This document shows, in pieces, positions 10,811-30,017 of a stretch of 64,000 nucleotides of DNA. Origin of the DNA: Candidatus Latescibacterota bacterium (GTDB taxonomy: Bacteria; Latescibacterota; UBA2968). Where the stretch lies: positions 5,312,001-5,376,000 of the forward strand of contig OZ242311.1 of assembly GCA_965207885.1 (NCBI GenBank), read 5' to 3'. Both the position numbers and the translations under genes were made by a program. The notes beneath the pieces were generated by a model that did no database searches, was not told the DNA's origin, and saw only the letters and a list, made by a program, of their open reading frames with translations. The first letter of the stretch is position 1, and each line of letters starts with the position of its first letter.

Positions 10811-11056
10811 CTATCTCCTCAAATAAGGTCCTCTGATGACTCATTAACTGACGTTACGCATAGATCGCCTGTCATTCCCATTTCATAAGCATGACAAGAT
10901 ATAGAGTTGCTACGTAAGGTCAAATATATTTAAATACCGACCTGTCTGTCAGATGCACAGGCTGATGGCAAAACCGTATTGATCGATGTGCAAACCAGCA
11001 TGGAGAGTAAACAATCGCGGTTTTAATCTCTGTCAAAAATACCAGAAGTATAAACC

Positions 11057-11087
11057 AAAAAACCACGCCCAAAGGACATGGTTTTTT
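11057..11087 (-). terminator. intrinsic terminator closing the RiPP/T1SS operon
   Basis: Minus strand CCATGTCC-TTT-GGGCGTGG stem (with G:U pairs) flanked by A6/T6, about 60 bp after the PPIase stop. Confidence 0.75.
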
Positions 11088-11147
11088 GTTAATAGAAGAT
11101 ACAACTAAAAATAGGAAATTACATACAAAAGTGACAAAGGTAATTCA

Positions 11148-11969
11148 CTACTCCTCTGAGACATTCACATCCTCTTTGGGAAGCGCGTCCTCTGTACATA
11201 TCGAATCCAAGAATGGGTAAGATATGTGGTTTCGTTTTGCCTCGCGTCTTAAACGGAGTTGATAGAGTTCCTGCACACAACGCGCTTTTGTAGCTTCATC
11301 GAGCACAGCGAGGCAGTGTTGTTGAATATAGTACAGCGCATAGCCCGTTTCCACTTTTATGGGACCAATCACCTCACCTACCTCAGCGGCAAATAATAGG
11401 GACGCAACTTCAGCGGGCAAGTCTCGTCGGCTCTGGCGACCGAGATAACCACTTGCAGGGCGCGTGTGCTCATCGAGGGAATATTGACGCGCGAGGGTGT
11501 GAAAATCTCGCCCACCATCCTTGATCTGCATCGCAATCTCTTCGGCAATGTCCTGTTCATTGACCAGAATCCAGCATATTTCCCGACGTTCAGACGCCAG
11601 TTTCTGGCTTGCAAAATGCGTTTGAATCGCTTCAGTAGTGATTTGCGCTTTCAAACGCTCCTGGAGCATCTGATATTCAATTTCCCGTGCCATGTCAGTG
11701 AAGGTGATATTGCGTTGTGATAACCAGTTTTCCGTATCTTCAACACTTTCCAATCTGTTTTTGTACCGCCATTGGTCTATCCCCTTTTGCAGTTCATTTT
11801 GAGGAATTTTAATTTTTTCTCGTTGGGCGATTTGAAAGACCAGACCGCGTTGCGTAAAGAGCTCGTGCAAGCTGTCCTTGTTAGTCGCCCGCATTGATTT
11901 CACGATATGGGACAAGCGAATTTGTGTCTCGTTTATTTGAATGATGACGGGGTCAATTGAATTTGCCAT
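11148..11969 (-). CDS. PpiC/rotamase-type peptidyl-prolyl isomerase associated with a peptide export cluster
   Basis: F..LARQYSLD..T....GYLG...R..LP and GEVIGPIK rotamase signature. Resembles PPIases that accompany PCAT/HlyD bacteriocin clusters. Confidence 0.82.
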   Translation of the reverse strand: MANSIDPVIIQINETQIRLSHIVKSMRATNKDSLHELFTQRGLVFQIAQREKIKIPQNELQKGIDQWRYKNRLESVEDTENWLSQRNITFTDMAREIEYQMLQERLKAQITTEAIQTHFASQKLASERREICWILVNEQDIAEEIAMQIKDGGRDFHTLARQYSLDEHTRPASGYLGRQSRRDLPAEVASLLFAAEVGEVIGPIKVETGYALYYIQQHCLAVLDEATKARCVQELYQLRLRREAKRNHISYPFLDSICTEDALPKEDVNVSEE

Positions 11970-11970
11970 T

Positions 11971-13320
11971 TTATTTTTCAGCCTCTGGAGAAAGCGCGGC
12001 CAGGTCGCGCAATTGCCGCAGTGGATTGAGTGCGAGCATCAAAATGGACTGGCGGTCTGTTATGATTTCTGCCGCGCCCTTCATGCCAAACATAAATGCT
12101 TTTTCCTCGCCGTGTACAAGAATGGTCGTGTACTCCAGATCAATAATGCCTCTAAACACAGTTCCCGAACCGTCATCGCCCATTGCGTCAGGTGAAATCT
12201 GTCTCAAATAGCCGTGCTGGATGCCGTAGTCCTGAAATGGAAATGCTTCAAATTTGAGCTTTACCTTTTGTCCAGATGACAGCAGGCCCACGTCTTTATT
12301 TAATATCAGGGCTTCGGCTACAATCGGCGTCGAGGCCGGTGCAATAGTTACCAGTGTCTGGCCTTTATTGACCACTTGACCTGGTGTATTGACCAGAACT
12401 TGTGTGACGATTCCCGGTTCAGGTGCAAGAATTAGATCGATGTCTGCATCAACAGATCGATTAACCGTTTGTTTCGCTTGTTTGAGTCTGATTTCTGCAA
12501 TGTCATAAGCATTTTGGAAGTTTGCCCGAGTGCGTTCGAGTTCGAGTCGTTCTTCGAGAATTTGGCGTTTTAAGTCCTTTAGGGAAACCTCATAACGATT
12601 GATCTCTGCCATCCGCGCGGGCAGTTCTGCCAATGCGCTCAGATAGCGGACTTTGGCTTCATCGCGTGCCGCAAGGCTGATGAGTCTCTTTTCGTACAAT
12701 TTTTGGTTTTGTTCATATTGTTGTTTCAAATGTTCTACTTCTGCGGAACGGAATTGTATTTCGATCTCAAGGTCGGGGGGTTGAGACGTTTCTGTGTGTT
12801 TTCCAAGTGCTTCCCGGTAGGTCTGCATTGCTGTTTGCATGACGTGAACGCGATGCTCAAGCGCGGAGATGGTCTCTTTTGCCAAAATTCTTTTTTGCGG
12901 CAGGGTTTGTTGCAGATCAAATTCTGCTTTTTTGAATGCGATTTCTGCTTGTTCCAGTTCGCGGAACTCCTTGAGGGTTTCTTGCGAGCGGAGTCTGAAT
13001 AAGATCTGCCCTTCAGCAATCAGGTCCCCCGAATGGATAGCGATTTCCTGGATTTCGCCAGAACGCGGTGCCTGGATGTTCTGAACCTTTCCCAATGGGA
13101 CCAGACGAAATGGGGCTGTTGCGACAACATCGACCTGACCGTACCAGGCCCATGCTATGGAGATGGCAATAAAAAGCAGCAGAATATAAATAAGCGCGCG
13201 GCTGAAAAAAGGGTGTAATGATCCTAAAAACTCGATGGTGCTTTCGGCCAAATCCGTTTCGTTTTCAAGCGGTTTTTCGCGTGGTTCTATTGGCAATTTT
13301 TCAATTTGAGCTTCGGCCAT
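11971..13320 (-). CDS. HlyD family type I secretion membrane fusion protein
   Basis: N-terminal TM helix, coiled-coil middle, ILAPEPG, LKFEAFPFQDYG, GMKGAAEIIT. Confidence 0.92.
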   Translation of the reverse strand: MAEAQIEKLPIEPREKPLENETDLAESTIEFLGSLHPFFSRALIYILLLFIAISIAWAWYGQVDVVATAPFRLVPLGKVQNIQAPRSGEIQEIAIHSGDLIAEGQILFRLRSQETLKEFRELEQAEIAFKKAEFDLQQTLPQKRILAKETISALEHRVHVMQTAMQTYREALGKHTETSQPPDLEIEIQFRSAEVEHLKQQYEQNQKLYEKRLISLAARDEAKVRYLSALAELPARMAEINRYEVSLKDLKRQILEERLELERTRANFQNAYDIAEIRLKQAKQTVNRSVDADIDLILAPEPGIVTQVLVNTPGQVVNKGQTLVTIAPASTPIVAEALILNKDVGLLSSGQKVKLKFEAFPFQDYGIQHGYLRQISPDAMGDDGSGTVFRGIIDLEYTTILVHGEEKAFMFGMKGAAEIITDRQSILMLALNPLRQLRDLAALSPEAEK

Positions 13321-13358
13321 TGAAATTCCGTTTTTTGTAATGTGTTAGCACGCTCGCG

Positions 13359-16325
13359 TTACACGACCTGCAATTGTTGTCCCGATAGATTGCAATAAAG
13401 TCCTTGTTCTGCGATGAGTGTATCGTGCGTGCCCTGTTCAATAATGTTCCCGTCATCCAGTACAAGGATCAAATCCGCATCTTTTACTGTGCTCACCCGG
13501 TGGGCGATGATAAACGCGGTCTTACCTTCCAGCATGGTGTCTAACCCTTCCTGAATCGCTCGCTCGGACTCTGTATCCAGAGCATTGGTGGCCTCATCAA
13601 AGATGATAATTTTGGGGTCGCCATATAGTGCTCTGGCAATGGACAGGCGTTGTCGCTGACCACCGGAAAGTCCCACACCCTGTTCCCGAATTTTGGTTTC
13701 ATATCCCATTGGCAGGTCTTTGATAAAGTCGTGGGCATAAGCGAGTTTGGAAACTTCCATCAAACGATCCATATCGACATCTTTGACCCCTATGGCGATA
13801 TTTTCGGTGATGGTGGCATTGAACATGACGGGTTCTTGCAAAACCATCCCCACCTGACGCCGCAACCATCCAGGATCAAATTCGCGCAGGTCTGTGTCAT
13901 CGAGGGTAACGCACCCCTCTGTGGGATCAAATAGTCGGGGTATGAGTTTTACCAGTGTTGTCTTGCCCGCACCGCTACGGCCTACTATGGCTACTTTCTG
14001 GCCGGACGATATGTCCAAATTTATGTCGCTTAAGACATAAGGTTCTGTCGATCCCGATCCATACCGGAAGAATACATCGTCAAATGCGATGTGTCCTTCT
14101 ACGTCTGTGAGTTGAACCGAATAGTTGCGGTTGCGCGATGACTCGGTTCGCATATCGTAGATATCGTTTAATCGGTCCAGCCCCATTTTTGCCAGTTGAA
14201 TCTGCGGCCACAGGTTAATCAATCCCATAATTGGTCCCAATACCCTGCCACTGAGCATATTGAATGCGATTAGTTGACCGACAGATAAGTCGCCCTGAAT
14301 GACCAGGTTCGCGCCATACCAGAGCACGATGGTGCTGCCCAAAACATTGTTTAGCTGTCCAAAAGACCCAAATAGCATATTTGTTTTGATTGCAGTAAAA
14401 CCAATTTTTATTTCCTGGGTCAAGCGTTCTTCCCAGGACCATCGCGTGGATTTTTCGACTGCGAGGGTTTTTATGACTTCAATGCCGCGTAGAGAATCAA
14501 TGAGTAAGGATGACCATTCTGAGCGGGCGAGAAAAGAGCGCTGGTTGATGGACTTGAGGATTGGGGTGTAGATTAAGGTCAGGATAATGCTAAACGGTAT
14601 GAATGCCAGAACATAGAGTGTCAAAGTGGTGTGGTAATAGAACATCAAGCCCAGATAGACAAAGATCATGATTGCATCAAGGACGGCTGAAATAGCCGTT
14701 TCTGTCAACAAGCTCCTCAAGTATTGGCTCTCTCGAAATCGCGTCATGATTTCACCGGTTCTGCGGAGGGCGAAAAACCGCATGGGCAGACGGAGGAGAT
14801 GGTGGTAGATGTGTGATAACATCGAGATGCTGATGCGCGCTCCCACATATCCAATCAGGTAGTTGCGCAGTGATGATGTGGCGATCCGAAATAAGGTGAT
14901 GATGATCATGCCTAAGAGCAGGAGATTGAGCAGACTATTATCCTGGTGAACGAGGACTTGATCGAGGATCATCTGGGTGAACAGAGGAGAAGCAAGGCCA
15001 AAGAGGTTCAGTACAAGGGAGGCGATCAGGATTTCGATGAGAATGCCGAGGTATGGACGGGCGAGTGGGAAAAACCGCCTGAACGATGATTTTCTTCCCC
15101 TGTATCTTGCGACCTTGTCGGTGTATTCAAGTATTAAGGCGAGTTTGGACCACTTGTCTTCAAATTCTTTGCGGGAGATTTTTCGGCGTCCAAGTGCAGG
15201 GTCGGCGATCCATGCGTATTTTGAACTGATGCGATACAGAACGACAAAGTGATAGCCTTCCCAGTGTGCGATAAGCGGCAGGTCTCTTTCTCCGATTTCA
15301 CTGTATCCAATCCGCACGCCGCGCGTTAAAAAGCCCAGGTTTTCAGCGGCTTCGGCAAGTGCGGATAGGGATGTGCCTTCCCGCGAGACATTGGCCATGT
15401 CTCGAAGTCGGTTTAATCCAATGGATTGTCCATAATATTGACAGATCATGCCGAGGCAGGCCGCGCCGCAATCGGTCTCATCGTGTTGCTTGATGTAGGG
15501 AAATGTGATGTAATTTCGCAGTTTTCGAGGGCTTTGATCAGAGATGCTATTTTCAGGCTCGATTTCTATTGTTTTAATTCGACCATTTTGCGGCACTGTC
15601 TCGCGCGGCTCTTCTTGTTCATTTTTCTCGAAGATCCGAATGAGTTGGGGAGCACTTTCAAGCACTCTGGCAAAGTCGCTGTGCGAAAGGGTGTAGAGCA
15701 CGACTTCTGTTTCTGTTTCAATAGTGATTTCATCACACTGCATGCCGCTAAAAAAGTCGCCCGGCTTTAACCTTTTGGAAGGCTGGTTCCCCTCTCTCAA
15801 CTGCAAGGTTCCGCGGCCAATGAGATAGAGTTTTTTTGCTTCTTCATCCTGCCATACTGCTTTTTCTCCTTCCGCAATAACCTTCCGCGCCAGACATTGG
15901 AAAAAGAGCTGCATAACCTCCTGGAGGTTTACGGTGTCCAGCGCTATGAATTTTGTGAAGTTTCGATAGGCGATGTCTCGCACTTGATCGAGCAGGTATG
16001 GAGTCAGTTCCCGATGCTCTGATACGAGGGCGTGAAAGTTGCCCTGAGAAATTTTCAGTACGATTGAGGATTCAACCGCTCGAACCGTTGCCCTGCGCGG
16101 TTTGCCCGTGAGCAATGCGCCTTCTCCGCAATGGTCGCCGGGAAAGAGATAACCGAGGGTCTGCATCTCATCATTGCTGTCTCTCGTTAAAACCCTGAGT
16201 TGCCCGGATACGACATAGTAAAAGCAATCGCCCCTGTCGCCTTCATAAAACAAAACCTCTCCGAGATTGACCTGCATTTCCTCTGCATGAGGTCTCAGAG
16301 AGGCATATAGATCGGTTCGTTTCAT
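13359..16325 (-). CDS. peptidase-containing ABC transporter (PCAT): 2 x cNMP-binding + C39 peptidase + ABC TMD + NBD
   Basis: cNMP motifs (GEGALL...PRRATV). C39 triad intact: QHDETDCGAAC, HWEGYHFVV, ADP. Walker A GRSGAGKT, signature LSGGQRQR, DEAT. Confidence 0.95.
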   Translation of the reverse strand: MKRTDLYASLRPHAEEMQVNLGEVLFYEGDRGDCFYYVVSGQLRVLTRDSNDEMQTLGYLFPGDHCGEGALLTGKPRRATVRAVESSIVLKISQGNFHALVSEHRELTPYLLDQVRDIAYRNFTKFIALDTVNLQEVMQLFFQCLARKVIAEGEKAVWQDEEAKKLYLIGRGTLQLREGNQPSKRLKPGDFFSGMQCDEITIETETEVVLYTLSHSDFARVLESAPQLIRIFEKNEQEEPRETVPQNGRIKTIEIEPENSISDQSPRKLRNYITFPYIKQHDETDCGAACLGMICQYYGQSIGLNRLRDMANVSREGTSLSALAEAAENLGFLTRGVRIGYSEIGERDLPLIAHWEGYHFVVLYRISSKYAWIADPALGRRKISRKEFEDKWSKLALILEYTDKVARYRGRKSSFRRFFPLARPYLGILIEILIASLVLNLFGLASPLFTQMILDQVLVHQDNSLLNLLLLGMIIITLFRIATSSLRNYLIGYVGARISISMLSHIYHHLLRLPMRFFALRRTGEIMTRFRESQYLRSLLTETAISAVLDAIMIFVYLGLMFYYHTTLTLYVLAFIPFSIILTLIYTPILKSINQRSFLARSEWSSLLIDSLRGIEVIKTLAVEKSTRWSWEERLTQEIKIGFTAIKTNMLFGSFGQLNNVLGSTIVLWYGANLVIQGDLSVGQLIAFNMLSGRVLGPIMGLINLWPQIQLAKMGLDRLNDIYDMRTESSRNRNYSVQLTDVEGHIAFDDVFFRYGSGSTEPYVLSDINLDISSGQKVAIVGRSGAGKTTLVKLIPRLFDPTEGCVTLDDTDLREFDPGWLRRQVGMVLQEPVMFNATITENIAIGVKDVDMDRLMEVSKLAYAHDFIKDLPMGYETKIREQGVGLSGGQRQRLSIARALYGDPKIIIFDEATNALDTESERAIQEGLDTMLEGKTAFIIAHRVSTVKDADLILVLDDGNIIEQGTHDTLIAEQGLYCNLSGQQLQVV

Positions 16326-16358
16326 GATGTTTTCCAGCCCCGCTTTGCATAAAGTCTT

Positions 16359-16931
16359 TTACTCAGCTTCAAATACACGCCACTTTGAGTCGGGTGACTT
16401 CTTGAGCACTGTCTTGTCCGAAAGCAGAACCTGAAATATGTATCGACTGCCATTAACAGGCATCTGTGCATGGACTGAATAGCAACGCCGGCACGCCTTT
16501 ATCTTGATCTCTGTGTCACAGGGGATACAGTCCATGTGTCCTGAAGGGTTTCTTTTACATCGCAGGCACTCAATTTGTTCGATCAGGTTTTTGTTCCGTT
16601 CCTGGTATTTCACCAACTCGCCAGGAGCTATCATGGCACCTATATACTCCAGACCTGCAGAGTGACACTCTTTGCAGTACCATCCTGAAAAGTCGCCGTA
16701 CACGAGTTGACAATTACCACATATGGAAATGTACTCCACATCTGGCTCGCGATTCTCAAAACGCCTGAAGTATGCCAGAATATCGGCCTTATCATCATCG
16801 GACAATTTCTCAAATGGCTGTAGTTTGGATCCACACTCCTGGCAGGGGTCGCCAAAGAAACGTTTTGCCCAGAGACCACCAATTCCCAGGACTACAATAA
16901 TGAGAATGGTCAAAATAATAAACGCTTCCAC
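16359..16931 (-). CDS. membrane-anchored Cys-rich protein with six CxxC motifs (probable multi-zinc-ribbon)
   Basis: N-terminal hydrophobic helix. CQEC, CGNC, CKEC(H), CLRC, CIPC, CRRC. Confidence 0.65.
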   Translation of the reverse strand: MEAFIILTILIIVVLGIGGLWAKRFFGDPCQECGSKLQPFEKLSDDDKADILAYFRRFENREPDVEYISICGNCQLVYGDFSGWYCKECHSAGLEYIGAMIAPGELVKYQERNKNLIEQIECLRCKRNPSGHMDCIPCDTEIKIKACRRCYSVHAQMPVNGSRYIFQVLLSDKTVLKKSPDSKWRVFEAE

Positions 16932-17074
16932 AGTAGGGTCCTCTTGTCAGTGTTTATTGCTATGTCCTCTGCCCTACGGGTTTTCGTCTCTATCCATCTG
17001 TGTCCATCTGCATAAAACGCTCAAATGGACCGCTGCGCAATTATACACCGTTCACTCGCGTTTTTTTTGCGGAT

Positions 17075-18430
17075 CTATTCAATCAATTCTTTGACATCGT
17101 GAATGCGAATATCAACCTCAGGCAAGTGTTTATTCAGAATGTCTATGATGTAATCTTTCGGACCGAGAAAAAGCATGATCATATTCTCCTGTACAAAGAA
17201 TTTTTCGAGAAAAGCTCGCACCTCAACATCGGTGACGGAATCATAACCGCCTTTGTGAGTTGGCGAATTATAGATGGCTTGATATACCTCATTGTCCAGT
17301 CTTCGCTGTAGTGTCAACAACTCATGAGCATAGATGACATTGCGACTTTCACGCAACTCTTTTATTGCCGCCCAAAAGCGGGGATTGTCGGGCAGTTTTC
17401 GGATGAAATCGGACATTTTTACGATCAACGCTTCACTATTATGGAATTGAGGATCAGCAAAAATTTCAAGAAACATGATTCCCTCTGATGATGACAAATT
17501 GCAAGAAGGGCCATAGACCAATCCCAACTCTTCTCTGAAATGTGTATTGAGCAAGCCTTGAGTACCATATCGTACAAGTATCCTGGATATCATTTTTGGA
17601 ATATAGCTCTCTTCTTTTTCTAAATTTCCACAAGGTATCAGCCAAAAACAAAAAATACTTTTTACGCCTGAAAAATTAAATACAAAAGCTGTAGGACCGA
17701 TATTATAATCCGTTATTGGAAATTTCGGTGAATGCACAAACCCCCCTGCCTGTCCGTGTTGCAGCAAGTGGGTCTCTCGCTTTTCTATAACTGGACGAAG
17801 TAGTTTCGAGATCTCAGTAGAATCGAGGTCTGAAATCACCTTAAAAAACACCACGTCTGTTTTCAGCAGTTGATCATAATATTGCGTGATGTCCTTAAGC
17901 GAGAGATTTTTGAGCGTTTTTAAAGATATATGTTTCTTTATGCCTTTTGTTTTTGAAAGTGCAAAATTTTTTATAAACGTATAATCCCGCAGGTAAGCCC
18001 GGTAATCAGCAACCAGCCCTTTTTTTATATCTTGTAATTCAGACTCAGAAAACTCGAGATTATATATGAAATCGCGGACTATTTTTATAGATCTGCCACT
18101 ATTCTCAGATAAGCCATAAATGGATATTGTTCGGTATAGGGTATTAGTAGTGATATTCAGACGAGTACCTAATGCTTCTAATTGATCCATATACCCCTGC
18201 TTTTGGACAGCCTTCCAGATCAATTGTGAGACTACCATTGCAAGCCCAGCTTGATATGGCTGTTCCGCACCGCTCCCAGCTCCGAGGAAGATAATCTCAA
18301 TTTTGGTCAATGGCGCGCGTTTGTCCTGGCGATAAAAAATTTGGTGGTTAGGTATCTCTGCAAAAGCGGGCAGGATACTAACCACGCAGCACAGAGCAAA
18401 ATTAAGTATCACTTTCAGAAACATATTCAT
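17075..18430 (-). CDS. M16 peptidase, non-catalytic subunit, with signal peptide
   Basis: M16 features (GSGAE...AGLA; FREELGLVYG) without HxxEH. N-terminal Sec-like signal ending PAFA. Confidence 0.75.
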   Translation of the reverse strand: MNMFLKVILNFALCCVVSILPAFAEIPNHQIFYRQDKRAPLTKIEIIFLGAGSGAEQPYQAGLAMVVSQLIWKAVQKQGYMDQLEALGTRLNITTNTLYRTISIYGLSENSGRSIKIVRDFIYNLEFSESELQDIKKGLVADYRAYLRDYTFIKNFALSKTKGIKKHISLKTLKNLSLKDITQYYDQLLKTDVVFFKVISDLDSTEISKLLRPVIEKRETHLLQHGQAGGFVHSPKFPITDYNIGPTAFVFNFSGVKSIFCFWLIPCGNLEKEESYIPKMISRILVRYGTQGLLNTHFREELGLVYGPSCNLSSSEGIMFLEIFADPQFHNSEALIVKMSDFIRKLPDNPRFWAAIKELRESRNVIYAHELLTLQRRLDNEVYQAIYNSPTHKGGYDSVTDVEVRAFLEKFFVQENMIMLFLGPKDYIIDILNKHLPEVDIRIHDVKELIE

Positions 18431-18549
18431 TGGTCTTTCGAGAGAACTTCCTACGTAAATTTTTTATCTATAAACAGTGTGACAAGACCACCCAGCAGCG
18501 TTAGAAAATCTACGCCTGTCAATATCATAATTCCATAGTGTAAGGATGT

Positions 18550-19887
18550 TCACGGAGGTGACATTTTCTTTTTTGACACCGTTAGAGAATAGGTTATGGA
18601 ATTGTCATCCGTCATGTACTGGTCTATAATGCGAGGGATGTCTTCTCTGCGAATGGATTTGAGGTCTTTTATCAATTTGGGATATAGGAGGGGATCGTTG
18701 GCGTGGGCAAATGCCTGTCCAAATGAATAAGCCATGTTTGAACGGTTGTAAAATGCGGAATACATTGTGGTCAACTGCTGGTTTCGAGCCGTATTGAGTT
18801 CTGCGTCGGAGATGGATTTCAGATTCTCCAACTCTTTGCTGATCATGTTCTGGAACCTATTTCTGGACGTATCATAGGGTAGTTCTGCATAGCAATGCAT
18901 CAAGCTAAATCCTTTATAGCTGCTGAGTTCCACCTGAAAAACACTTGCGAGCTTAGAACCAACGACGGTAGATCGCAAAGAATTTGAGGACTTATCCAAG
19001 ATATAGTCCAGAATAAGCAGGCCAGCGTAGTCGCGATGTCCTAAATTGGGTGTGTACCAGCCCTTTCTGAATATAGTAACAATGAGATTTTTTAAAGTGT
19101 GTTTTAATCTTTTTCCGAGCACTTCACGGTTCGGATATTGGGGAGAATACGGTTTGCTCGGTATTTGCTCATTGCCATAAGCTTCGTCCAATTTTTTCAA
19201 GACCTGGTCAACATCCACATCGCCGATCACGACAATCAGTCTCTTTTGACGGCGCAGAAAATTCTCATAATACGCTTTCAAATCATCAGATTCGAGTTGT
19301 GTAATAAAAGCCTCAGTACCAAGGTCATTAAAATTCTTTTTTTTGTAAATTAAAGAAAAAAAAGAATTCTTGTGTCTAAGTTTTAAACTTGATAATCTAT
19401 GACTTCTTTCCGTCAGTACGATTTTCTTTTCTTTTTTTATAATTTCCTCATTGATCACTGTGTTGTAATATCTTTCCGAATCTATCTTAACCGCGAGATC
19501 AAACTTATCCTTCGGAAATTTTAGTATAAAGCATGTAAAATGATAATCAGTAAAGGCTTTTTGTTCTCCTTCATTATCTGCGATAATTTGATTGAGTTTC
19601 CCCGGCGCATAGCTGCCAATGCCCGCTATGACATGCTCTAAAAAATGTATCCGTCCTTGTTGACCTTCCTCTTCATCTGCCGAGCCAGCATCATAAAAGG
19701 TATGGTATTCAAAGGTTGGGATTGTTCGATCTACAACAATAACAGCGTCGAGGTTGGGATTGATGGTATAATATTGCGCGACGAGTTCTTCAGATAATGT
19801 GGCTGTGCCAACAAGATCGTAGGCAACGCAAATGCCCGTTGGCAAGACGCATACAAGGAATGAGGTGAGTGCGTAAGTTTTCATCAT
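18550..19887 (-). CDS. M16 (pitrilysin/insulinase) zinc peptidase, catalytic subunit, with signal peptide
   Basis: AGSADE...G.IHFLEH inverted zinc motif, EKKIVLTE. Hydrophobic N-terminus. Confidence 0.85.
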   Translation of the reverse strand: MMKTYALTSFLVCVLPTGICVAYDLVGTATLSEELVAQYYTINPNLDAVIVVDRTIPTFEYHTFYDAGSADEEEGQQGRIHFLEHVIAGIGSYAPGKLNQIIADNEGEQKAFTDYHFTCFILKFPKDKFDLAVKIDSERYYNTVINEEIIKKEKKIVLTERSHRLSSLKLRHKNSFFSLIYKKKNFNDLGTEAFITQLESDDLKAYYENFLRRQKRLIVVIGDVDVDQVLKKLDEAYGNEQIPSKPYSPQYPNREVLGKRLKHTLKNLIVTIFRKGWYTPNLGHRDYAGLLILDYILDKSSNSLRSTVVGSKLASVFQVELSSYKGFSLMHCYAELPYDTSRNRFQNMISKELENLKSISDAELNTARNQQLTTMYSAFYNRSNMAYSFGQAFAHANDPLLYPKLIKDLKSIRREDIPRIIDQYMTDDNSITYSLTVSKKKMSPP

Positions 19888-19969
19888 GTTTGATACTCAG
19901 CAAAGTTGGGAATGGCTGCCTCGCCTATATATATCTGGATACATTCTTGCACTGCACAGTATAAAATCT

Positions 19970-20002
19970 GAAGGTTCTTCCAGCAGGCCTGAAAGAACCT
20001 TC
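19970..20002 (-). terminator. 14-bp stem-loop downstream of the double-glycine precursor (terminator or mRNA-stabilising hairpin)
   Basis: Minus strand GAAGGTTCTTTCAG-GCCTG-CTGGAAGAACCTTC, with one G:U pair. Confidence 0.6.
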
Positions 20003-20059
20003 TTAGTCATGTAATCCCTGAGAAACCGGACTATGTAGTGTTAAACGTGTACAATGGTA

Positions 20060-20656
20060 TCAGTTACCTACTCTCGTATTATCTTGTCCGGTTGTCTCAA
20101 ATCCATCAAAAAGTCCATTCTCATCCTCCTCACCCCCCTCATCATTGGTACCACAATTACCATCACAATTCTCATCATCACAATTCTCACAATTCTCATT
20201 ATCATCTTCTCCCTCACCTTCTCCCTCACCTTCTCCCTCACCACAATCCCCACTGTCGCCATCCTCTGGTCCTGCCATCTGATCACTATAAAAAAACTCC
20301 TCAGCAGCATCTGGATTAACAGGCTGGTTTATTTGCGTCCAGTCGGGTAACTGATCCCCTTCCCTATACATCTCGAGTGGTGATATCTGTGGTCCATTGT
20401 CCCCAAAATTAGGTGATGGTGGTAGCCCAGGTTCAGGAGAACCAAAAACAGAGGTGACAATATCCCAGATGGTAGGTCCCGTGTTCCAATCTATTGGGTC
20501 TTCATCTTTGCATTTACTTTTCCCCCCATCCCCACCCCGAGCCATGTTCATTTCTTGTATTGAAATGGTCTCGGAGAGGATAGAGAGCGGTTTACAAGTA
20601 AGTCCTGTAATGGATGTGGTGATACCTTCACTCTGTTCAGAAATATTTTTTGACAT
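20060..20656 (-). CDS. 198-aa acidic, Cys-containing double-glycine-leader protein (putative PCAT substrate / RiPP precursor)
   Basis: TAGGAG RBS. I31-S-x-x-E-M-x-x-A-R-G-G42 is in exact register with the LSxxELxxIxGG leader consensus. Acidic C-terminus with (GE)6 and an xNC-repeat segment. Confidence 0.75.
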   Translation of the reverse strand: MSKNISEQSEGITTSITGLTCKPLSILSETISIQEMNMARGGDGGKSKCKDEDPIDWNTGPTIWDIVTSVFGSPEPGLPPSPNFGDNGPQISPLEMYREGDQLPDWTQINQPVNPDAAEEFFYSDQMAGPEDGDSGDCGEGEGEGEGEGEDDNENCENCDDENCDGNCGTNDEGGEEDENGLFDGFETTGQDNTRVGN

Positions 20657-20667
20657 AATACTATCTC

Positions 20668-21538
20668 CTAGGTAGTGTCTGAAAAGTAAGCTTTGAAGAG
20701 TTGTCTGATACAGGCCAGCTTGACCATAGTGAGAAAATGAGTCGCCTTTTTTTCAAATCGGGTCACAATCCGTCGGCAGTGTTTAAGCCAACCAAAGAGA
20801 CGCTCCACGATATTGCGTTTGGCATATAATCTTTTATCACACTTAGGCCGTGGTCCTCTCTTACGCCGTTTTCTGCCTTTGGGAATCGCCTTGTTTGGGA
20901 TAGCAGCCTTGATACCCCGTTTGCGTAGATAGACTCTGATGCGTGAGACATCATAAGATTTATCAGCTACCAGATACTTGGGTCGGTTTCTTGGACGCCC
21001 TCGTTTGGTGGGTATGCATACCTTTGACAGTAGCCTTTCAGCCTGTGTGGATTCTGACTGGTTACCAGGGAGAAGATCCACTGCTAAAGGATGCCCGACT
21101 GCATCGCAAAGAAGATGGATTTTCGTGGTCAAACCGCCACGAGAGCGTCCTAAAGCGTGATCTGGGGGCTCTTCTTCACCCTTTTTGCCCTTTTTTTTTC
21201 GCTCCTGCCGCGGCTTGTGTGGCTCGAATATGGGTTGCATCCATCATCCAGGTCGCATAATCTAAAAGACCATCTTCACCCAATTTGAGATGTAGCTTTT
21301 CTACAATGCGATCAAAGGTGCCATCCTGTTTCCATTTGCAGAATCGGTCAAAGGCTGTCTGCCAAGGACCATATCGTTCTGGCAGGTCGCGCCAAGCTGC
21401 ACCTGAACACAATATCCAGAAGATCCCGTTGAATAATGTACGATCATCCCGACGGGGACGACCCATCTTCTTCGGCGGTGGGAACAGGTCTTGGATCAGA
21501 TGCCAAGCCTCGTCGCGCAGTTCATATCTCCGTTGCAT
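20668..21538 (-). CDS. IS5-family transposase (ORF A 21176..21538 and ORF B 20668..~21200, joined at an A9 run)
   Basis: GRPR.DDR..FNGIFW.L.SG..WRDLP.RYGPWQT; GRSRGGLTTKIH; VADKSYD; RNIVER.F..LK..RRI.TRFEK. Confidence 0.92.
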
Positions 21539-21607
21539 ATCATACTCCTTGGTTTAGGGCGTATGCTGCAACTAAAATACATACTTTACGACTTTTCAGA
21601 CACTACC
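20671..21607 (-). mobile_element. IS5-family insertion sequence (two-ORF, IS427/IS1031-like)
   Basis: Perfect 17-bp terminal IRs GGTAGTGTCTGAAAAGT / ACTTTTCAGACACTACC. Inserted in CTAG with TA duplicated (20669-20670, 21608-21609). Confidence 0.92.
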
Positions 21608-21642
21608 TAGTAAGGGTTATTACTTGTGGATTGATTAAAATC

Positions 21643-22586
21643 TCACTTAAGAAATTTTGCTGTCTCGCCATCTTTACACGTACGATCTCTGTCGTGAAAA
21701 AATAGAAAGTTGCGAAAAAACGTATTGACGATTGTCATATAACAGGCATTCTGTTTTCTTTTTTGAGCTTCTGGTGGAAGATCCGTGAACTCCTGGATGC
21801 GCTCAGGTGTCACCCCATGGATGTCGCGAATGGTATTGAACAGACCAATCAGATCTGTTTCACAGCAGTTATTCGCTTTAGCCAGCACGCTCAAATACAC
21901 ATCATCAACATGCGATAATGCCTTTGCAATTCGGGTGCGAGTCTCACTGACAGACTGAACATCCGAAAGCCTATCAGGCGCATCCCAACACGGTGTCACG
22001 GATTTGATCTTACGCAGCACGGCCAGATGGTGGTCTTCGCGGATAATCTCCACAGCAAAACTACTGGGATAGACGGACAGCCAGTTCTCGACAATTTGCT
22101 TCTCATAAGACCTTCTGAAATCGTCCAGAATGACCAGACCACCAATCTTGATCTGGTCATAAACCTGGTAAAGGCATGCCTCCCGACCTCGCAAGGTATA
22201 GACTGGCGGACCATCAATAACCACGCAATCTATCTCTTCCTTCCAAAACACCCCATCTTCATAAGTCAAAAATTCCGTATCTCCATAAGATTCAAGGGTA
22301 ATTGGACGATGTTTGATCGATAGATTGCGCTTATCCCAGAATGTTTGCATCAGACTCAGGGTCTCTGCAAAATTCCGCCAGTCGCCTTCTATAGACAGAA
22401 CCTCGGTTCCAAAAACGCCATCGCCAGACGGATAGAACTCGGACCACTTCCAAATTCGAGAATTCTTTCTACTGGAGACATCTGAAGAAGCGTGGTTGCG
22501 ATTCTCTCAAACGCTGTCTCACCAATGCTCCAGCCCGCGTCCAGATTAAGCCGATCCGGTATTTTGAGGTCGGAAATTTTATGCAT
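21643..22586 (-). CDS. class I SAM-dependent methyltransferase (Methyltransf_24-like), split by a 1-nt frameshift near 22412
   Basis: ILEFGSGPSS motif I in ORF 22389..22586. One extra T in the T5 run continues into GTEVLSIEGD...VVIDGPP...GGLVILDD in ORF 21643..22350. Confidence 0.8.
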
Positions 22587-22589
22587 GCC

Positions 22590-24032
22590 TTACTTCTTTA
22601 CTTCAGATACCACTTCCAGATCATATCGTCGCTGCAACAAAGACGCATCTTCCTCTGCAATCTCCATACACATCTCCATCGCCAATTCATAGCGATAGCG
22701 CGTCTGTTCACAAGCAACAGGGTTGGGATACATCGGATCACCCGTTGTCGTCCGCGCCTCCCAAAGACATCCGCCACCACACAGGTTGCGCGCCCAGCAC
22801 GTCTTGCACTCAGGACGATTATTCACATTGAACTGCGCGTCAAAATGCTGCTGCTTTTCGCGGTCAATACCCGCAAACACATCACCCATCTTAAACTCGG
22901 GCGCATCGGCCAAACTCGAACAAAAATAAATCGACCCATCTGCTGCAATAGCCAGATACTGCTTGCCACCCAGGCATCCATGACAGGATTTCTGGCGCGT
23001 CAACAGTTTCTGAATCCGCGGATCAAACTCTTCACTCTCTTCACCATTTAGAATGGCTTTGAGCGCACGCCTACTCCGCTTGTAAATTTGCTGCTTCAAC
23101 GCAGGTATGTGTTCTTCCCGAATCGCATAAGGCGCATCCGGTGAAACAACAGCCGGACCAACAAGCGCGTTATCAGTACCCAGAGAACGCAACGCATCGG
23201 CAATCTGATCCTCGTCCATATCATACGCTGTCATAACAGCCTGCAAATACACCCTCTCGGGAACCTCAGCAGTCAATTTCTGTACATTCTTTGCCACAAC
23301 ATCATAAGTGCCAGAACCATTGTGAAACTTGCGAATGCGGTCCTGTGTCTGACGCCCACCATCCAGACTGACCTTAATTTGAAACTTTTCATCAACCAAA
23401 AACTGCTTCATCTCGTCGGTCAACAACGTGCCATTGGTCACAATGCCAAAACCAACCTGCACACCCAATCGCGCTGATAGGGATTTGGCAAATGGGACAA
23501 GCTCCTGCATCAATGGAAAATTCAGAAGCGGCTCTCCGCCAAAAAAATCAATCTGGCATCGTCCCAATACCTGAGCCTCGGCAACAATCCAGCGTATGGC
23601 TTGCTCGGCAACATCTATTTGCATCAGCATCGCCTTACCGCCATAATCTCCACCGTGGGCAAAGCAATAAGCACACTGAATATTGCAAGTATGGGAAACG
23701 TGCAAAGACACCTGCAACCGATCTGTCTGCGATACGCCACAGGCTGCCACCCCTTCTGTCGTCGGCACACTGGATACCAGAGGCAAAGCACCATCCGAAA
23801 TCAAACCCACCTGGGACAGTTCCTCAATGGCCTCGACAATTTCTTCTGCCTCGTATTGATCAGCCAACCTCTGAACAACCTGCGAAACAGACAAACCCTC
23901 GCAACACTCTAAAATCGCCTCGAAAAGAGTATCCAATTTAAAAAATAGACCCGTCTCAATCTGATAGACAATCGGTTGTTCTTGCTCTTCTGTTTGAAAA
24001 AGATGCATTTCACATTTCTGAATGCACAGCAT
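22590..24032 (-). CDS. radical SAM/SPASM peptide maturase with N-terminal RRE-like domain (CteB/PapB/QhpD-like)
   Basis: LHVSHTCNIQCAYCFA (CxxxCxxC), IDFFGGEPLLN, VTNGTLL, VSLDG. SPASM C..CLGG...FC...CKTCWARNLCGGGC...C. GAGGAG RBS 8 nt before ATG 24032. Confidence 0.93.
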   Translation of the reverse strand: MLCIQKCEMHLFQTEEQEQPIVYQIETGLFFKLDTLFEAILECCEGLSVSQVVQRLADQYEAEEIVEAIEELSQVGLISDGALPLVSSVPTTEGVAACGVSQTDRLQVSLHVSHTCNIQCAYCFAHGGDYGGKAMLMQIDVAEQAIRWIVAEAQVLGRCQIDFFGGEPLLNFPLMQELVPFAKSLSARLGVQVGFGIVTNGTLLTDEMKQFLVDEKFQIKVSLDGGRQTQDRIRKFHNGSGTYDVVAKNVQKLTAEVPERVYLQAVMTAYDMDEDQIADALRSLGTDNALVGPAVVSPDAPYAIREEHIPALKQQIYKRSRRALKAILNGEESEEFDPRIQKLLTRQKSCHGCLGGKQYLAIAADGSIYFCSSLADAPEFKMGDVFAGIDREKQQHFDAQFNVNNRPECKTCWARNLCGGGCLWEARTTTGDPMYPNPVACEQTRYRYELAMEMCMEIAEEDASLLQRRYDLEVVSEVKK

Positions 24033-24056
24033 AGCACGCACTCCTCAAAACCCAAA

Positions 24057-24245
24057 TCACTTAGCCTGATCATCAACCTGTTCGAAATCGTCCCAATCGT
24101 CATCATCGGGAAAGGGCAGAGGGGGAACGCCAAAATCACCGGAGGGACAGAGCACTTCAAAACTATGCACAGTTTGGTACATAAGGATGCTACCTTCTTG
24201 ATCTATCGTTCCATTGATCAAAGTCAACTTACGTCGCGTTGTCAT
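24057..24245 (-). CDS. 62-aa putative RiPP precursor peptide
   Basis: AAGGAG RBS. First gene after the sigma54 promoter, directly upstream of the rSAM. Leader RRKLTLINGT, single CPSGD, acidic tail. Confidence 0.78.
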   Translation of the reverse strand: MTTRRKLTLINGTIDQEGSILMYQTVHSFEVLCPSGDFGVPPLPFPDDDDWDDFEQVDDQAK

Positions 24246-24291
24246 GTTACTCTCCTTGATAATGCAAAAATCTTAGATGCCGTTACTATAT

Positions 24292-24308
24292 TGCAAGATC
24301 CGTGCCTA
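24292..24308 (-). promoter_or_regulatory. sigma54 (-24/-12) promoter
   Basis: Minus strand TAGGCACGGATCTTGCA versus consensus TGGCACG-N4-TTGC(A/T). About 47 bp upstream of the precursor ATG and adjacent to a GAFTGA activator. Confidence 0.85.
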
Positions 24309-24323
24309 AAATCGCCTCAGCAC

Positions 24324-24355
24324 AAAAAAAAGCACTTGAAAATGCTCAAGTGCTT
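24324..24355 (-). terminator. intrinsic terminator-like hairpin between the activator gene and the sigma54 promoter
   Basis: Perfect 10-bp IR AAGCACTTGA-N6-TCAAGTGCTT followed by a T-run on the minus strand. Confidence 0.6.
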
Positions 24356-24498
24356 GAAAAACAAAGAGATAAAATTTAAAAATTATTTGTATTGTAAATG
24401 CGGCATCCAAATATATGTGTATCTAATAGATACGCATATAACCGTTCATTTAGGCAAAATATGTATAAATGATTGATTAATATAAAAATAAATTAAAG

Positions 24499-24533
24499 TG
24501 CATCTAAATGATACATTGTCACAAAATGATACA
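24499..24533. promoter_or_regulatory. tandem enhancer-like (UAS) sites for the sigma54 activator
   Basis: TGCATC-TAAAT-GATACA and TGTCAC-AAAAT-GATACA, 18-bp period, about 200 bp upstream of the -24/-12 box across an AT-rich spacer. Confidence 0.6.
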
Positions 24534-24545
24534 TTCGTTCAATAT

Positions 24546-27500
24546 CTATCTCAACCCCAAACGATTCATCTTTCTATACAAGCTGGCACGCACCAACCCC
24601 AGTTCTTCGGCCGTACGCTTAATATTACCCTCGTATTTTTCGAGCGCATCCATAATCAACCGTCTCTCATACTCCTGCATACGATCTTGTAAACGCCCTC
24701 CTGCTTGCGTGTGGGCATCCGCCCGTGCAGACAAGTGATATTCGACAAAGATACCCGACACAGCGTGAATGACAGCTTCTGAAAACAAATCAGGCGTAAT
24801 ATCACCCTCTTCTTCTGACAATGCTACCGCACGTCGAATTTCATGCTCCAACTCGCGCACATTACCAGGCCAGTTGTAACTTGTGAGTGCCCTGATTGCA
24901 CCCACTGTCAACCCTCCAACCGACTTTCTTGCCTCTTCTTTTGCTCGAATGAGCAGATGTCCAGCCAATAATGGCACATCTTCAAGGTGTTCTCGTAAAG
25001 GTGGCATATCGATCTGAATCCCGTGCAACCGGTAATACAAATCTTCGCGGAAAGAACCGTTTTCAACTTCTTTTTTTAAGTCTCGATTGGTCGCTGCAAT
25101 AATGCGTACATCCACTTCGCGATCCTCTGTTTCTCCCACACGCCGAATCTCACCTTCTTGCAACACCCGCAACAAACTTCTTTGCAACTGCGGCGGAGCA
25201 TCGGCGATTTCATCGAGAAGAACCGTGCCCCCATCAGCCGCTTCAAAAATCCCCTTATGATCTTCACTCGCGCCAGTAAACGCGCCTTTTTTGTGCCCAA
25301 ACAACTCACCCTGCAACAACTCTGGTGATAGTGTAGCACAATTTTGTGACAAAAATCGTTGATCTTTGCGCCTGCTATTGTAGTGTATGGCACGCGCAGC
25401 CAACTCTTTGCCCGTACCTGTTTCGCCCTGCACAAGTACGGGAATATCACTTTGTGAAGCGCGTTCGATAAGCTGGTAAACCACCTGCATAGCATCACTC
25501 TGCCCGACCAGATCATCAAGCCGGTACCGCCTTTCGACCTGTTGCTGAAAATATTGTGCTTTCTCTTCCAGTTGTTCATACATCCTCGCATTGACCAGCG
25601 CCAGCCCCACCAGATTCGCAAAAGCCTGTAAAAACGTCTGATCTGCTTCAGAAAATGCGTTGTCAATACCGCGATGATCCACATATAGCGCACCGATAAC
25701 ACCTTCCTTAACATGAAAAAGAGGCACACACAATACAGACCGAATGTGGTAGTCTATCACGCTCTGATACCGATTTAATCTTTCGTCTGTCTGGGCATCC
25801 ATGCTCAAAACGGGTTCATTGGTCTCAATAACGCGGCGAATAATACCCCGACTCAGTTCTTCTGCATCATCTGCTTCTACATTGTAGTAGCGCACGGCAT
25901 CAACCACAAAGCCTTTTGGGGTCTCATTTTTAATCGCAATAAGCACCCGCTCTGCTGGATAGACAGCCAACAAATTACCCAGAGTTCGATCCAATAACAC
26001 CTTGACATCGCGCTCTGTGGTCAATTCGTGGCTCACTTCGTAAAGCAAGCTCAAACGATCGACAGACAATGTATCGACTGAAATCCCAGAAATAGATGCG
26101 GCACCTGCTTGCGCGATAGCAGGCAAGTCCTCCTTGCGAGAAGATTTATCCAATTGATTTAATAAAATCCGTGTTTTCTCCAGAAAATAAGACATCTCCA
26201 TCTCTTCAAACGCCTGTTTTGCCGCTTCAAGATGTACTTGCGCTTTTGGTACATCATCGCGCTCGAGATAAAACTCCCCTGCTATCAACAGCGCACGCGC
26301 CCAGTGATCGCCTTTAGATTCTCTTCGGCATTCAATCGCCTGCTCAAAAGCCTCTTCAGCCTCAGCTATCCGCCCTGCATGAGCAAAAGCCGCACCAATA
26401 CCACAATACACCAAGGGCAATATGCCCGTGAACATACCCGATGTTTGTTGCGTACCTTCACTGGCTTTTTCTGCCCATTCAAATGCTGTTTCTGTATCTC
26501 CCATTCTCGCAGCAACCGTTGCCGCAATCGCATAAGCGCGATAGATATAATCTCTTCGCGATATTTGCAAAAACCCCTCCACCGAGGTCTCGGCATATTC
26601 CAATGCCTCGGCAAAATCACCGCGTTCCAGTGCCAATTCTCCCAGATAAAGGAAATTCACTGCCTCCCCATACACAAGTCCTTGCTTCCTCCACTCACCA
26701 ATGACCTCATAGCAAACGGCTTCTGTACGGGTGAGATCTCCCAGATAAAAATAAACCCTTTGAAGCGAATTAAGTGCCCCAATGCGATGATGTTCAAATC
26801 CAAGCTGTTGAGATGTTTTTACAGCCACTTCTAGATATTCTTTGGCTGTTTCAAATCGAAAGTCCACCAATGCAGCTTGACCTTCTCGAACTTGTATAAA
26901 AGCGTCTTTCTGCGGATCTATCAACACACGACGTTTCTCTATTTCCAGACGCATATACTCAAGTGCTTCTTTGTGCCGTCCAGATACATCGCACAAATAA
27001 GCCAAACTGCCCAATGCTTGAACTTCTCCGTCGAGATCATCCAGTTCACGATAAAGTCGCAATGCCTCCAGCATATATTCTTTTGCAATTTCTCCATGTT
27101 GAAGTACGCTGTGAATACCACCTTCATTCCACAAAATACGCGCTTTCAAATCTCTCCGGTCATCGGGCAATAACGCCTTTGCCTCGCCTAAAAGTTCCAA
27201 TGCTTTATTGTGTTGACCACAATTGCGCAACGTATCTGCATAATCGCACAAAAAGTCGATAGCATTTACTTGTGATTCAAAAACGCCATCCGCCTGCTGT
27301 ACAGCCTCAAACCGTCTCAATGCCTGGCGATAAGCGTGTTTTTCCAATGCTTTTTTGCCCGCCATGAGCGTATATTTCACAGCCTTATCTCGTTCTTCTG
27401 CCGCCGCAAAATGATTCGCCAATTCTTCTATCAATTCTTCTGCATCTTCCGAATCTTCCAGAGCATTGCCAATTTCTCGATGCAACAACCGCCGCCGCAC

Positions 27501-29420: not shown

Positions 29421-29831
29421 GACCCGCTCTACTTTCTCCAGATCAACAAGACTTTGGAAGCCATTTTAAAACGTTTGCGAACTGATTGGTAATTTCAAAA
29501 GAATTGGCTGAGGGATGTGCATAATTCAAAAGCAGACTGCCTTGATGTGCGAAGTAGTTCGGAATGGACAATATATTATCTATAAATATTTATAATAGCT
29601 TGATATATTGCTTAATAAACAGTCTTTTAAAGAAAAAACGATACATTGTATTAATCACAATATATCGCCCTTATTAGAGGATCGCAAGCCTATTTTTATA
29701 TTTCGCAATGCGTCAAATTCAGGATTTTTTTAACCTTTTTTGCGACACGGGGCGCAGTTTATTCTGTTGCGATTCACTATAATAATAATTTTATATTACG
29801 GTAGTTAGCCAAAAGCGTCGTGGAGGAACAA

Positions 29832-30017
29832 ATGTCTAAAAACAAATCTCTCGAACAACGAGTCGCTACAATTTTAGAGACCTACGATCAGCAGGGCATT
29901 CACCGAACAGGAACAACAGGAGATACGAAAAACGCACACTATTTGGCCGAGCAAATAAAAGCCGCTGGCCCCTTGCAATCAATCTGCAAAAAATTGTACG
30001 CCTCACCCATGCGTTGA
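29832..30017 (+). pseudogene. truncated 5' gene remnant at the cluster border
   Basis: Strong GGAGG RBS and a protein-like N-terminus (YDQQGIHRTGT..D...A.YLA) that ends abruptly after about 60 codons. Confidence 0.4.

Follow-up and report, generated by a model that had tools for sequence, protein, structure and literature searches.

An acidic protein family with an invariant double-glycine leader as the likely cargo of a long peptidase-containing ABC transporter in Candidatus Latescibacterota

Genome mining in cyanobacteria has described long ATP-binding cassette (ABC) transporters that carry a C39 peptidase and a CAP_ED domain of the cyclic nucleotide monophosphate (cNMP)-binding type; they are accompanied by HlyD and a rotamase, with M16 peptidases added in group II, and Wang et al. 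proposed extra M16 cleavage sites in such clusters (PMC3140520). HetC of Nostoc is a cNMP-type peptidase-containing ABC transporter (PCAT) that binds ppGpp and whose substrate is given as not known (PMC10986499). Here we describe a cluster of this architecture in a window, i.e. the whole analysed stretch, of 64,000 nucleotides of Candidatus Latescibacterota bacterium (contig OZ242311.1, positions 5,312,001 to 5,376,000), and argue that the gene P0001 (20060..20656) encodes the likely cargo of the long PCAT encoded downstream of it. The window features named below all lie on the minus strand and are given in window coordinates. The cluster architecture as such is already known from cyanobacteria; the novelty lies in the cargo family, with its size, charge and mosaic variability, and in the tandem cassettes in which it is found.

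The PCAT (13359..16325), delimited by Pfam matches and synteny, comprises two cNMP-binding domains, a C39 peptidase and the ABC membrane and ATPase domains. Its C39 domain matches Pfam at 3e-40, both catalytic motifs, Q-x6-C and HFVV...DP, can be read in the sequence, and the NHLP exporter model, which stays under its cut-off, comes second among the NCBIfam matches. The gene is followed by that of an HlyD-family periplasmic adaptor (11971..13320; domain match and synteny) and, directly behind it, by that of a PpiC-type peptidyl-prolyl isomerase (11148..11969; domain match), in which an N-terminal hydrophobic stretch is absent. A PpiC-type rotamase is also found 3' of HlyD in four related loci (L002, L004, L006 and L007), at 88-89% identity. 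With the M16 genes that separate P0001 from the PCAT, the window thus holds all parts of a group II/HetC-type long-PCAT cluster: the succession of cNMP domains, C39 and ABC, HlyD, the rotamase and M16.

The N-terminal cNMP-type domain, the C39 domain and the ABC exporter are shared with the cyanobacterial group I and II clusters and with HetC; with the cyanobacterial clusters the locus also shares HlyD, a rotamase (SurA-like/PpiC), the M16 genes of group II and a nearby precursor of the double-glycine (GG) type (PMC3140520). The system described here differs in belonging to one genus of Latescibacterota, and it is likened to HetC on the ground of architecture. Its cargo is, unlike that of HetC, unambiguous and encoded next to the machinery. 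Furthermore, in contrast to the cyanobacterial clusters, the cargo is a polyanion of 110-180 amino acids (aa) without a family match, and it comes in tandem cassettes with M16 genes.

P0001 is an open reading frame (ORF) of 198 aa with an AGGAGA ribosome-binding site 5' of its ATG. Conservation across homologs sets off residues 1-42 (nt 20531-20656) as a leader from an acidic core, residues 43-198, that is predicted to be disordered. Residues 31-42 (ISIQEMNMARGG) place Ile at -12, Ser at -11, Glu at -8, Met at -7, Ala at -4 and Gly-Gly at -2/-1, and so show what characterizes a double-glycine leader, namely GG at -2/-1, hydrophobic residues at -4, -7 and -12 and an acidic residue at -8. A word-based search yielded 14 homologs of P0001; in their alignment (A1), 18 of the 19 invariant columns fall inside residues 1-42, the last of the 18 being G42, after which the homologs split into unrelated, gap-rich segments. 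In a second alignment (A2), built from 14 leader regions taken from genomic loci, 15 columns are invariant at a mean identity of 79%, and E35, M36, G41 and G42 are found in every one of the 14 genes. Given these 15 invariant columns in 14 genes, and a conservation that stops at the GG, the leader and its end stand far above chance. When 1.84 billion representatives were searched exhaustively with a profile, the leader was found at residues 1-40 in 31 clusters at 50% identity, and three further weak matches were not N-terminal.

Nine related loci were found, all in metagenome-assembled genomes of Candidatus Latescibacterota. The order leader gene, M16a, M16b, (zinc ribbon), PCAT, HlyD is kept in five of them (L002, L004, L006, L007 and L010) and, as far as the contig end, in L003; L005 has the PCAT only as a 59-aa fragment, and the contigs of L008 and L009 stop before the PCAT position. 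Identities across loci reach 92-96% for the PCAT and 90-94% for HlyD, and only 54-73% for the M16 subunits. The unit of cargo, M16a and M16b occurs in tandem: L005 and L008 each have two units plus one cargo-less M16 pair, and L003 has two units and four leader genes.

Within the phylum, the leader profile finds 8 of 168 genomes, all of them from one genus (8/21), and none of the 147 outside it. The N-terminal half of the PCAT is found, at 89-100% identity, in seven of the eight genomes with the leader and in no other genome of the genus (0 of 13); G096 has leader genes and the PCAT only as a fragment. Three genomes (G089, G092 and G086) carry PCAT variants at 75-84% identity. A diverged leader was sought in G092 and G089, where no intact cargo gene was found and G092 gave a leaderless acidic remnant only, and G086 likewise yielded no intact leader gene. 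It should be noted that these co-occurrence counts are descriptive, the genomes being kin and not independent. Taken together, the leader and PCAT counts make for a strong reading of P0001 as a putative PCAT cargo. This is what an earlier note on this DNA had proposed, and the proposal is now well supported at the sequence level by the conserved leader ending in GG, the kept gene order and the co-occurrence of leader and transporter. Besides this PCAT, a second cNMP-C39 PCAT paralog (~45% identical) is encoded in every genome of the genus (21/21), here at G000:C1:2053387-2054652.

The mature part of P0001 would comprise 156 aa, with 43 Asp+Glu against 5 Lys+Arg (28% Asp+Glu, pI ~4), 25 Gly, 14 Asn and 13 Pro. 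The AlphaFold2 model, computed from a 15-row alignment, has a mean predicted local distance difference test (pLDDT) score of 50.8, a predicted template modelling score of 0.11 and not a single residue at or above a pLDDT of 70, and P0001 is accordingly predicted to be intrinsically disordered. No family was matched in Pfam or NCBIfam (E<=0.01), and a profile search of the PDB returned no match either; matches in a protein atlas stayed at noise level (0.77 for a GG bacteriocin cluster, 0.75 for a QhpC cluster) and serve as leads only. DNA repeats at 20161..20242 encode two low-complexity runs, (GE)6, which arises from a 12-bp repeat of 3.4 copies (20202-20242), and an xNC run, which arises from 15-bp and 9-bp repeats (20161-20198). 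The (GE)6 expansion is seen in this genome only, its closest homologs having one or two GE/GD units at that place.

Much of this had been noticed before from the letters alone. The C39-type leader at residues 31-42 with a 156-aa mature part was confirmed on reading the translation, both repeats were recovered at the DNA level, all six mature cysteines are present, four of them in CX3[D/E], and the 14-bp hairpin placed 3' of the gene is there, with its stem at 20002..19970. A suggested comparison with homologs came out as expected in one half only: the length of the GE run varies, whereas the cysteine positions are not conserved.

Variability is the rule beyond G42. Our set of cores comprises 51 distinct sequences of 30 aa or more, in which fragments and frameshifted variants (P0019, P0023, P0029 and P0036) are counted; their medians are 141 aa, 28% Asp+Glu and 3% Lys+Arg. 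Short modules recur among them, i.e. N-C-x-x-C-D-D-E-N-C-D-G-x-C in 11, C-x-P-x-C-I-D-x-C-C in 6, E-C-T-V-P-x-D-C-G in 9, S-S-G-T-Q-D in 10 and W-D-W-L in 13 of the 51. The centre of P0001 is common to proteins with a different tail, and its Cys tail is common to proteins with a different centre; as judged from these comparisons, the cores are hypervariable mosaics of short modules. In the four variants P0019, P0023, P0029 and P0036 the tail turns from acidic to basic midway, which looks like a frameshift in the repetitive, acidic part of the coding sequence, whether through sequencing error or through real slippage.

A constant leader that ends in GG before unrelated cores, in precursors of net negative charge, is also a feature of the NHLP/Nif11 precursors as they appear in the cyanobacterial survey (PMC3140520). 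Here, however, the 42-aa leader matches neither model, the cores are several times longer and no modifying enzyme is consistently linked to them. The prochlorosins are likewise a PCAT-exported family with a conserved leader and a hypervariable core.

We consider it likely that P0001 is a disordered polyanion that serves as cargo of the downstream long PCAT and HlyD, and that the radical S-adenosylmethionine (rSAM) enzyme encoded upstream is a separate matter. The first 42 residues of P0001 are, as their conservation shows, a dedicated double-glycine leader. Judging from the mechanism of the family, the C39 domain of the PCAT would bind this leader and cut after Gly42, and the ABC/HlyD machine would then export the 156-aa remainder. 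The two cNMP-type domains at the N-terminus probably make export depend on a nucleotide signal, if HetC is a guide. The M16 heterodimer probably trims or degrades the exported protein, which is the weakest step of the proposal. With the cargo adjacent and recognisable, nucleotide-gated PCAT export becomes directly testable at this locus. For a GG-leader substrate, this cargo is unusually large, acidic and mosaic, and it may belong to a new class of disordered proteins that uncultured symbionts secrete.

As to function, our best guess is that the bacterium, which is sponge-associated, uses the mature protein as a diversifying factor in extracellular interaction or competition. A bolder proposal, which we put forward as speculation and would sooner doubt than defend, is that a single sponge-associated genus of Latescibacterota keeps up a recombining library of disordered, polyanionic exoproteins, in which at least 31 clusters (50% identity) of shuffled modules are joined to an invariant 42-aa leader and a conserved 5' region and served by one nucleotide-gated, HetC-like PCAT, in tandem cassettes with extracytoplasmic M16 heterodimers, amounting to a diversity-generating system of secreted proteins for interaction with host or competitors. 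If this were true, a HetC-type transporter would for the first time have a clear cargo.

Between P0001 and the PCAT lie the genes of M16a (18550..19887), an active M16 peptidase subunit with the motif HFLEH, and M16b (17075..18430), an M16 partner without HxxEH; both have an N-terminal signal peptide. In each of the 12 cassettes compared, the M16 pair stands 3' of the cargo gene; all 15 M16a copies have HFLEH, and most of them carry a membrane anchor at the C-terminus. An in-frame stop in the M16a gene of the window (18550-18552) removes this anchor, of which a remnant can still be read beyond the stop in the same frame. The stop sequence is also present in a run X1 contig, and short M16a forms occur in L006 and L007 too. 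L007 also has a 289-aa M16b-like fragment at the usual position of the M16 pair, one of the signs of decay among relatives. A complex prediction for M16a, M16b and the mature cargo scored 0.00, which gives no verdict and is used neither way. M16b and the PCAT are separated by the gene of a membrane-anchored, Cys-rich, zinc-ribbon-like protein of 190 aa (16359..16931; placed by synteny), which has several CxxC pairs, lies between M16b and PCAT in most loci at 64-82% identity, and matches no family above cut-off.

The hairpin between the cargo gene and M16a (19970..20002) has a stem of 14 bp followed by AGATTTTATA and is shared by 11 of 13 cassettes, again 3' of the leader gene. This genome has three such sites, the other two lying upstream of another M16a. 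In the locus L018 (G000:C1:874000-892500) the same stem-loop, at around 12264-12290 and 13526-13552, flanks a gene for a lipoprotein-like protein of 328 aa; that gene is situated upstream of a PCAT-less module of M16a, M16b and zinc ribbon, with a pair of ABC ATPase genes upstream, an arrangement that L007 and L008 share. A scan of 11000-30000 against Rfam returned no match.

Several observations weigh against the cargo reading as we have put it, and concern the destination of the protein, the role of the M16 pair, the expression of P0001 and the standing of the rSAM enzyme. No gene for an outer-membrane channel lies in the cluster, so the mature protein may end up in the periplasm or outside of the cell. 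Cargo similarity does not run with that of M16a (Spearman 0.11, Mantel P=0.20, 12 cassettes) or M16b (Spearman -0.04, 10 cassettes). Homologs of M16a are present in all 21 genomes of the genus, the 13 leader-less ones included, and the present genome has two further M16 pairs without leader gene or PCAT. An insertion sequence (IS) parts P0001 from a conserved 5' region and any promoter there, which leaves expression at this locus uncertain. The rSAM cassette lies directly upstream of the leader gene and co-oriented with it in two genomes, the window and L003, so that co-transcription and an occasional functional link are possible. Finally, the window core has a four-Cys acidic module, and the families nearest to the rSAM enzyme (SCIFF maturase, QhpD and PapB, all below cut-off) form Cys thioethers. 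Since M16 pairs and hairpins also occur without cargo, we regard the M16 pair as part of a broader extracytoplasmic module and infer its action on the cargo. The idea of a cognate M16 pair for each cargo, immunity-like or matched in specificity, was dropped for lack of co-variation.

Among the alternatives, the one that survives best, as a possible if doubtful reading, is that P0001 is a pro-protein which the extracytoplasmic M16a/M16b cuts into short acidic active peptides such as signals or bacteriocin-like products. Chambered M16 enzymes need disordered substrates, and the cargo is predicted to be disordered. The constant position of the M16 pair behind the cargo gene, the invariant HFLEH and the signal peptides on both subunits fit this proposal. 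Heteromeric M16 proteases of pathways for peptides that are made on the ribosome and modified after translation (RiPPs) include PqqF/PqqG and, reportedly, AlbE/AlbF. The extra cleavage sites proposed by Wang et al. for cyanobacterial clusters point in the same direction, as does the heteromeric M16 enzyme PttP1/PttP2, which processes lanthipeptide precursors (PMC10885120). Like PttP1/PttP2, AlbE/AlbF and PqqF/PqqG, the pair described here combines an active HxxEH subunit with an inactive partner beside a ribosomal precursor; in contrast to them, signal peptides on both subunits and the anchor on most M16a copies place its action outside the cytoplasm, and M16 pairs are found without a cargo. 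This last point, the missing co-variation with the cargo and the loss of the M16a anchor in this genome argue against a dedicated processing of P0001 into peptides.

A second alternative, which we think somewhat less probable, is that the locus is decaying in this genome and that P0001 is no longer properly expressed. The insertion is an IS5-family element (20668..21610; DUF4096 and DDE ORFs) with perfect terminal inverted repeats of 20 nt and CTAG flanks, whose end lies 11 nt 5' of the P0001 ATG, where it parts the ribosome-binding site from the conserved 5' region. In the 6.23-Mb genome the 0.94-kb element occurs 23 times at full length and 100% identity, a sign of a recent burst. The other 14 leader genes have a conserved stretch of ~30 nt before the start codon, and in the window the two halves of this stretch flank the element, so the insertion is recent. 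The stop in M16a, seen in the run X1 contig too, and a frameshifted methyltransferase gene upstream are also in keeping with decay, and so are remnants in related genomes (G092, L028 at 15260-15499; L005 at 13832-14008; G086), namely a leaderless acidic cargo remnant, seen in G092, and PCAT fragments, one of them in L005. On the other hand, the ORF of P0001, its ribosome-binding site and the genes of PCAT, HlyD, M16b and the zinc-ribbon-like protein are all intact, and the element has the same orientation as P0001, so that read-through is possible. An RNA-library contig from sponge (X24) that matches part of P0001, in the region of the Cys module, at >=90% is a weak hint against decay; it probably derives from a relative and is no evidence of transcription here. 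Among the contigs of RNA runs, those of X22 cover the IS only and those of X24 small parts of the stretch at 90-99% likeness; related IS copies reach high depth in the RNA library X22. Sponge-metagenome runs hold parts of the stretch as well, and contigs of run X5 are identical to the leader region and part of M16a.

A further proposal, made for Ca and metals in the earlier note too, is that the mature protein is a secreted polyanionic binder of cations (Ca2+, another metal or a mineral surface), with the runs of Asp, Glu, Asn and Gly and the C-x2-C-x4-C-x3-C arrangement as sites. The charge and composition of the core and its low pI would suit such a role, and the four-Cys acidic module is conserved in 11 of the 51 cores. 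However, no Ca- or metal-binding family is matched in Pfam, NCBIfam or the PDB, and hypervariability with shuffling of modules would not be expected of a simple metal binder, which makes this proposal unlikely. Cysteine counts across the 51 cores are even in 38, zero in 3 and odd in 10. Such mostly even counts fit disulfide pairs formed after export better than thioethers, with the caveat that the sequences are related, and on this pattern the cysteines of P0001 most likely pair as disulfides once the protein has been exported.

The weakest of the alternatives, that P0001 is a giant RiPP precursor crosslinked between Cys and Asp/Glu by the neighbouring rSAM enzyme before PCAT export, is in our view very improbable, for reasons that lie in the cysteines themselves and in the relations of the enzyme. 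The earlier note had suggested multiple thioethers in the manner of QhpC and PapA, while warning that CX3D/E arises easily by chance in an acidic sequence; the warning proved justified and the suggestion did not hold. PapA is known for a CX3D motif, and four of the six mature cysteines of P0001 indeed lie in CX3[D/E] (CKDED, CGEGE, CENCD and CGTND), the other two standing in the contexts CDDEN and CDGNC. When the mature part is shuffled, at least four such motifs appear with P = 0.045, and when the acidic tail is shuffled, at least three appear with P = 0.35; Asp or Glu is also met at +1 and at +2 of three of the six cysteines each. Across the family, 59 of 174 cysteines are in CX3[D/E] against 49.9+-5.9 in shuffles (P=0.07), and offsets 1, 2, 3 and 6 outscore it. 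Neither in P0001 nor in the family does CX3[D/E] exceed the level of chance. Moreover, cysteine positions show no conservation in the alignment of homologs, the Cys module is confined to those 11 cores, three cores are free of cysteine, and P0001 has no SCIFF or QH-AmDH_gamma match in Pfam or NCBIfam. The noise-level score for the QhpC cluster in the protein atlas was one of the points in favour of the RiPP proposal.

The enzyme in question is an rSAM/SPASM maturase with an N-terminal PqqD-like recognition domain (22590..24041; domain match). Its best scores are to the SCIFF maturase (267 bits), QhpD (258) and PapB (229), with the Nif11 maturase also among the models, and all are below cut-offs. 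It is encoded upstream of P0001 on the same strand, and with the IS taken out the methyltransferase-like gene of its cassette would end ~45 nt before P0001, a junction also found in L003. This gene (21643..22586; ORFs) is nevertheless damaged at both junctions, being split by a frameshift near 22406 in the window and mostly deleted in L003, where a 3' remnant only is left. A consistent linkage of leader genes to an rSAM/SPASM maturase was not found, the two being adjacent in those two genomes only. The rSAM enzyme occurs in 16 of the 21 genomes of the genus, 10 of the 13 leader-less ones among them, and was not found in two of the eight leader-bearing genomes (G095 and G096); its copies in G093, G094 and G088 lie far from PCAT loci, and in the genome of L004, a locus with the same Cys module, they are more than 1 Mb away. 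We read the adjacency as one rearrangement common to two lineages and not as a biosynthetic link.

The enzyme has, besides, a candidate substrate of its own. A conserved ORF of 60-70 aa lies 5' of the rSAM gene in 10 of 10 cassettes, including all three in this genome; in the window it encodes a 62-aa peptide (24057..24245) with one invariant Cys and a PPLPFP-DDDD-WDDF tail. Upstream of it is a sigma-54-type promoter motif, GGCAC-N5-TTGCA (24293..24307), and GGCAC-N5-TTGC is present in all six cassettes scanned (the window, L011, L012, L014, L015 and, as a variant, L016) and upstream of none of 14 leader genes scanned. In the whole window the sigma-54 motif has 60 matches against 68 expected, which is not above chance, and the site at 24293-24307 is kept as a promoter because the motif is conserved in other cassettes. 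A sigma-54 activator is encoded upstream of the rSAM cassette. As with the ranthipeptide-type systems (SCIFF, QhpC and PapA), the core is rich in Cys and Asp and has in its neighbourhood a related rSAM/SPASM enzyme that carries a PqqD-like domain; unlike in those systems, the motif is at chance, the cysteines are unconserved, and the enzyme has its own 62-aa substrate and another distribution. On these grounds the 62-aa peptide is the probable true substrate of the rSAM enzyme, which appears to belong not to the P0001 system but to a separate, sigma-54-controlled cassette. A tempting RiPP assignment is thereby removed from P0001, and the conserved peptide is put forward in its stead as the real candidate substrate of the maturase.

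Two other candidates can be set aside briefly. A class II microcin or bacteriocin, whose mature peptide is under about 10 kDa, is ruled out by a strongly anionic mature part of 156 aa and by the absence of an adjoining small immunity-like gene, none being found between cargo and M16a, and an RTX or Ca-binding repeat protein is set aside for want of a Pfam family or PDB relative. We found no description of this system in the literature; the supplementary tables of PMC3140520 may list similar acidic precursors.

The rSAM cassette merits some remarks of its own. With its 62-aa peptide it may represent a new ranthipeptide-like family; neither the peptide nor the methyltransferase-like protein has a match in Pfam or NCBIfam. 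This RiPP-like cassette is multi-copy (three copies here; also L011-L016, L020 and L021) and consists of the promoter, the 60-70-aa peptide, the rSAM/SPASM enzyme and, often, a methyltransferase-like protein of ~297 aa. In the window the latter is divided into ORFs of 65 and 235 aa by a frameshift of 1 nt at ~22406. An additional base at this point in a contig of run X1 would bring the two back into one frame; the contig may stem from a paralogous copy, or the assembly may be in error here. A regulator of 1624 aa (24546-29420) combines a Ser/Thr kinase, an AAA/STAND-like ATPase, TPR and GAF domains, a sigma-54 activator and a helix-turn-helix (HTH) domain, and its C-terminal part recurs upstream of other rSAM cassettes.

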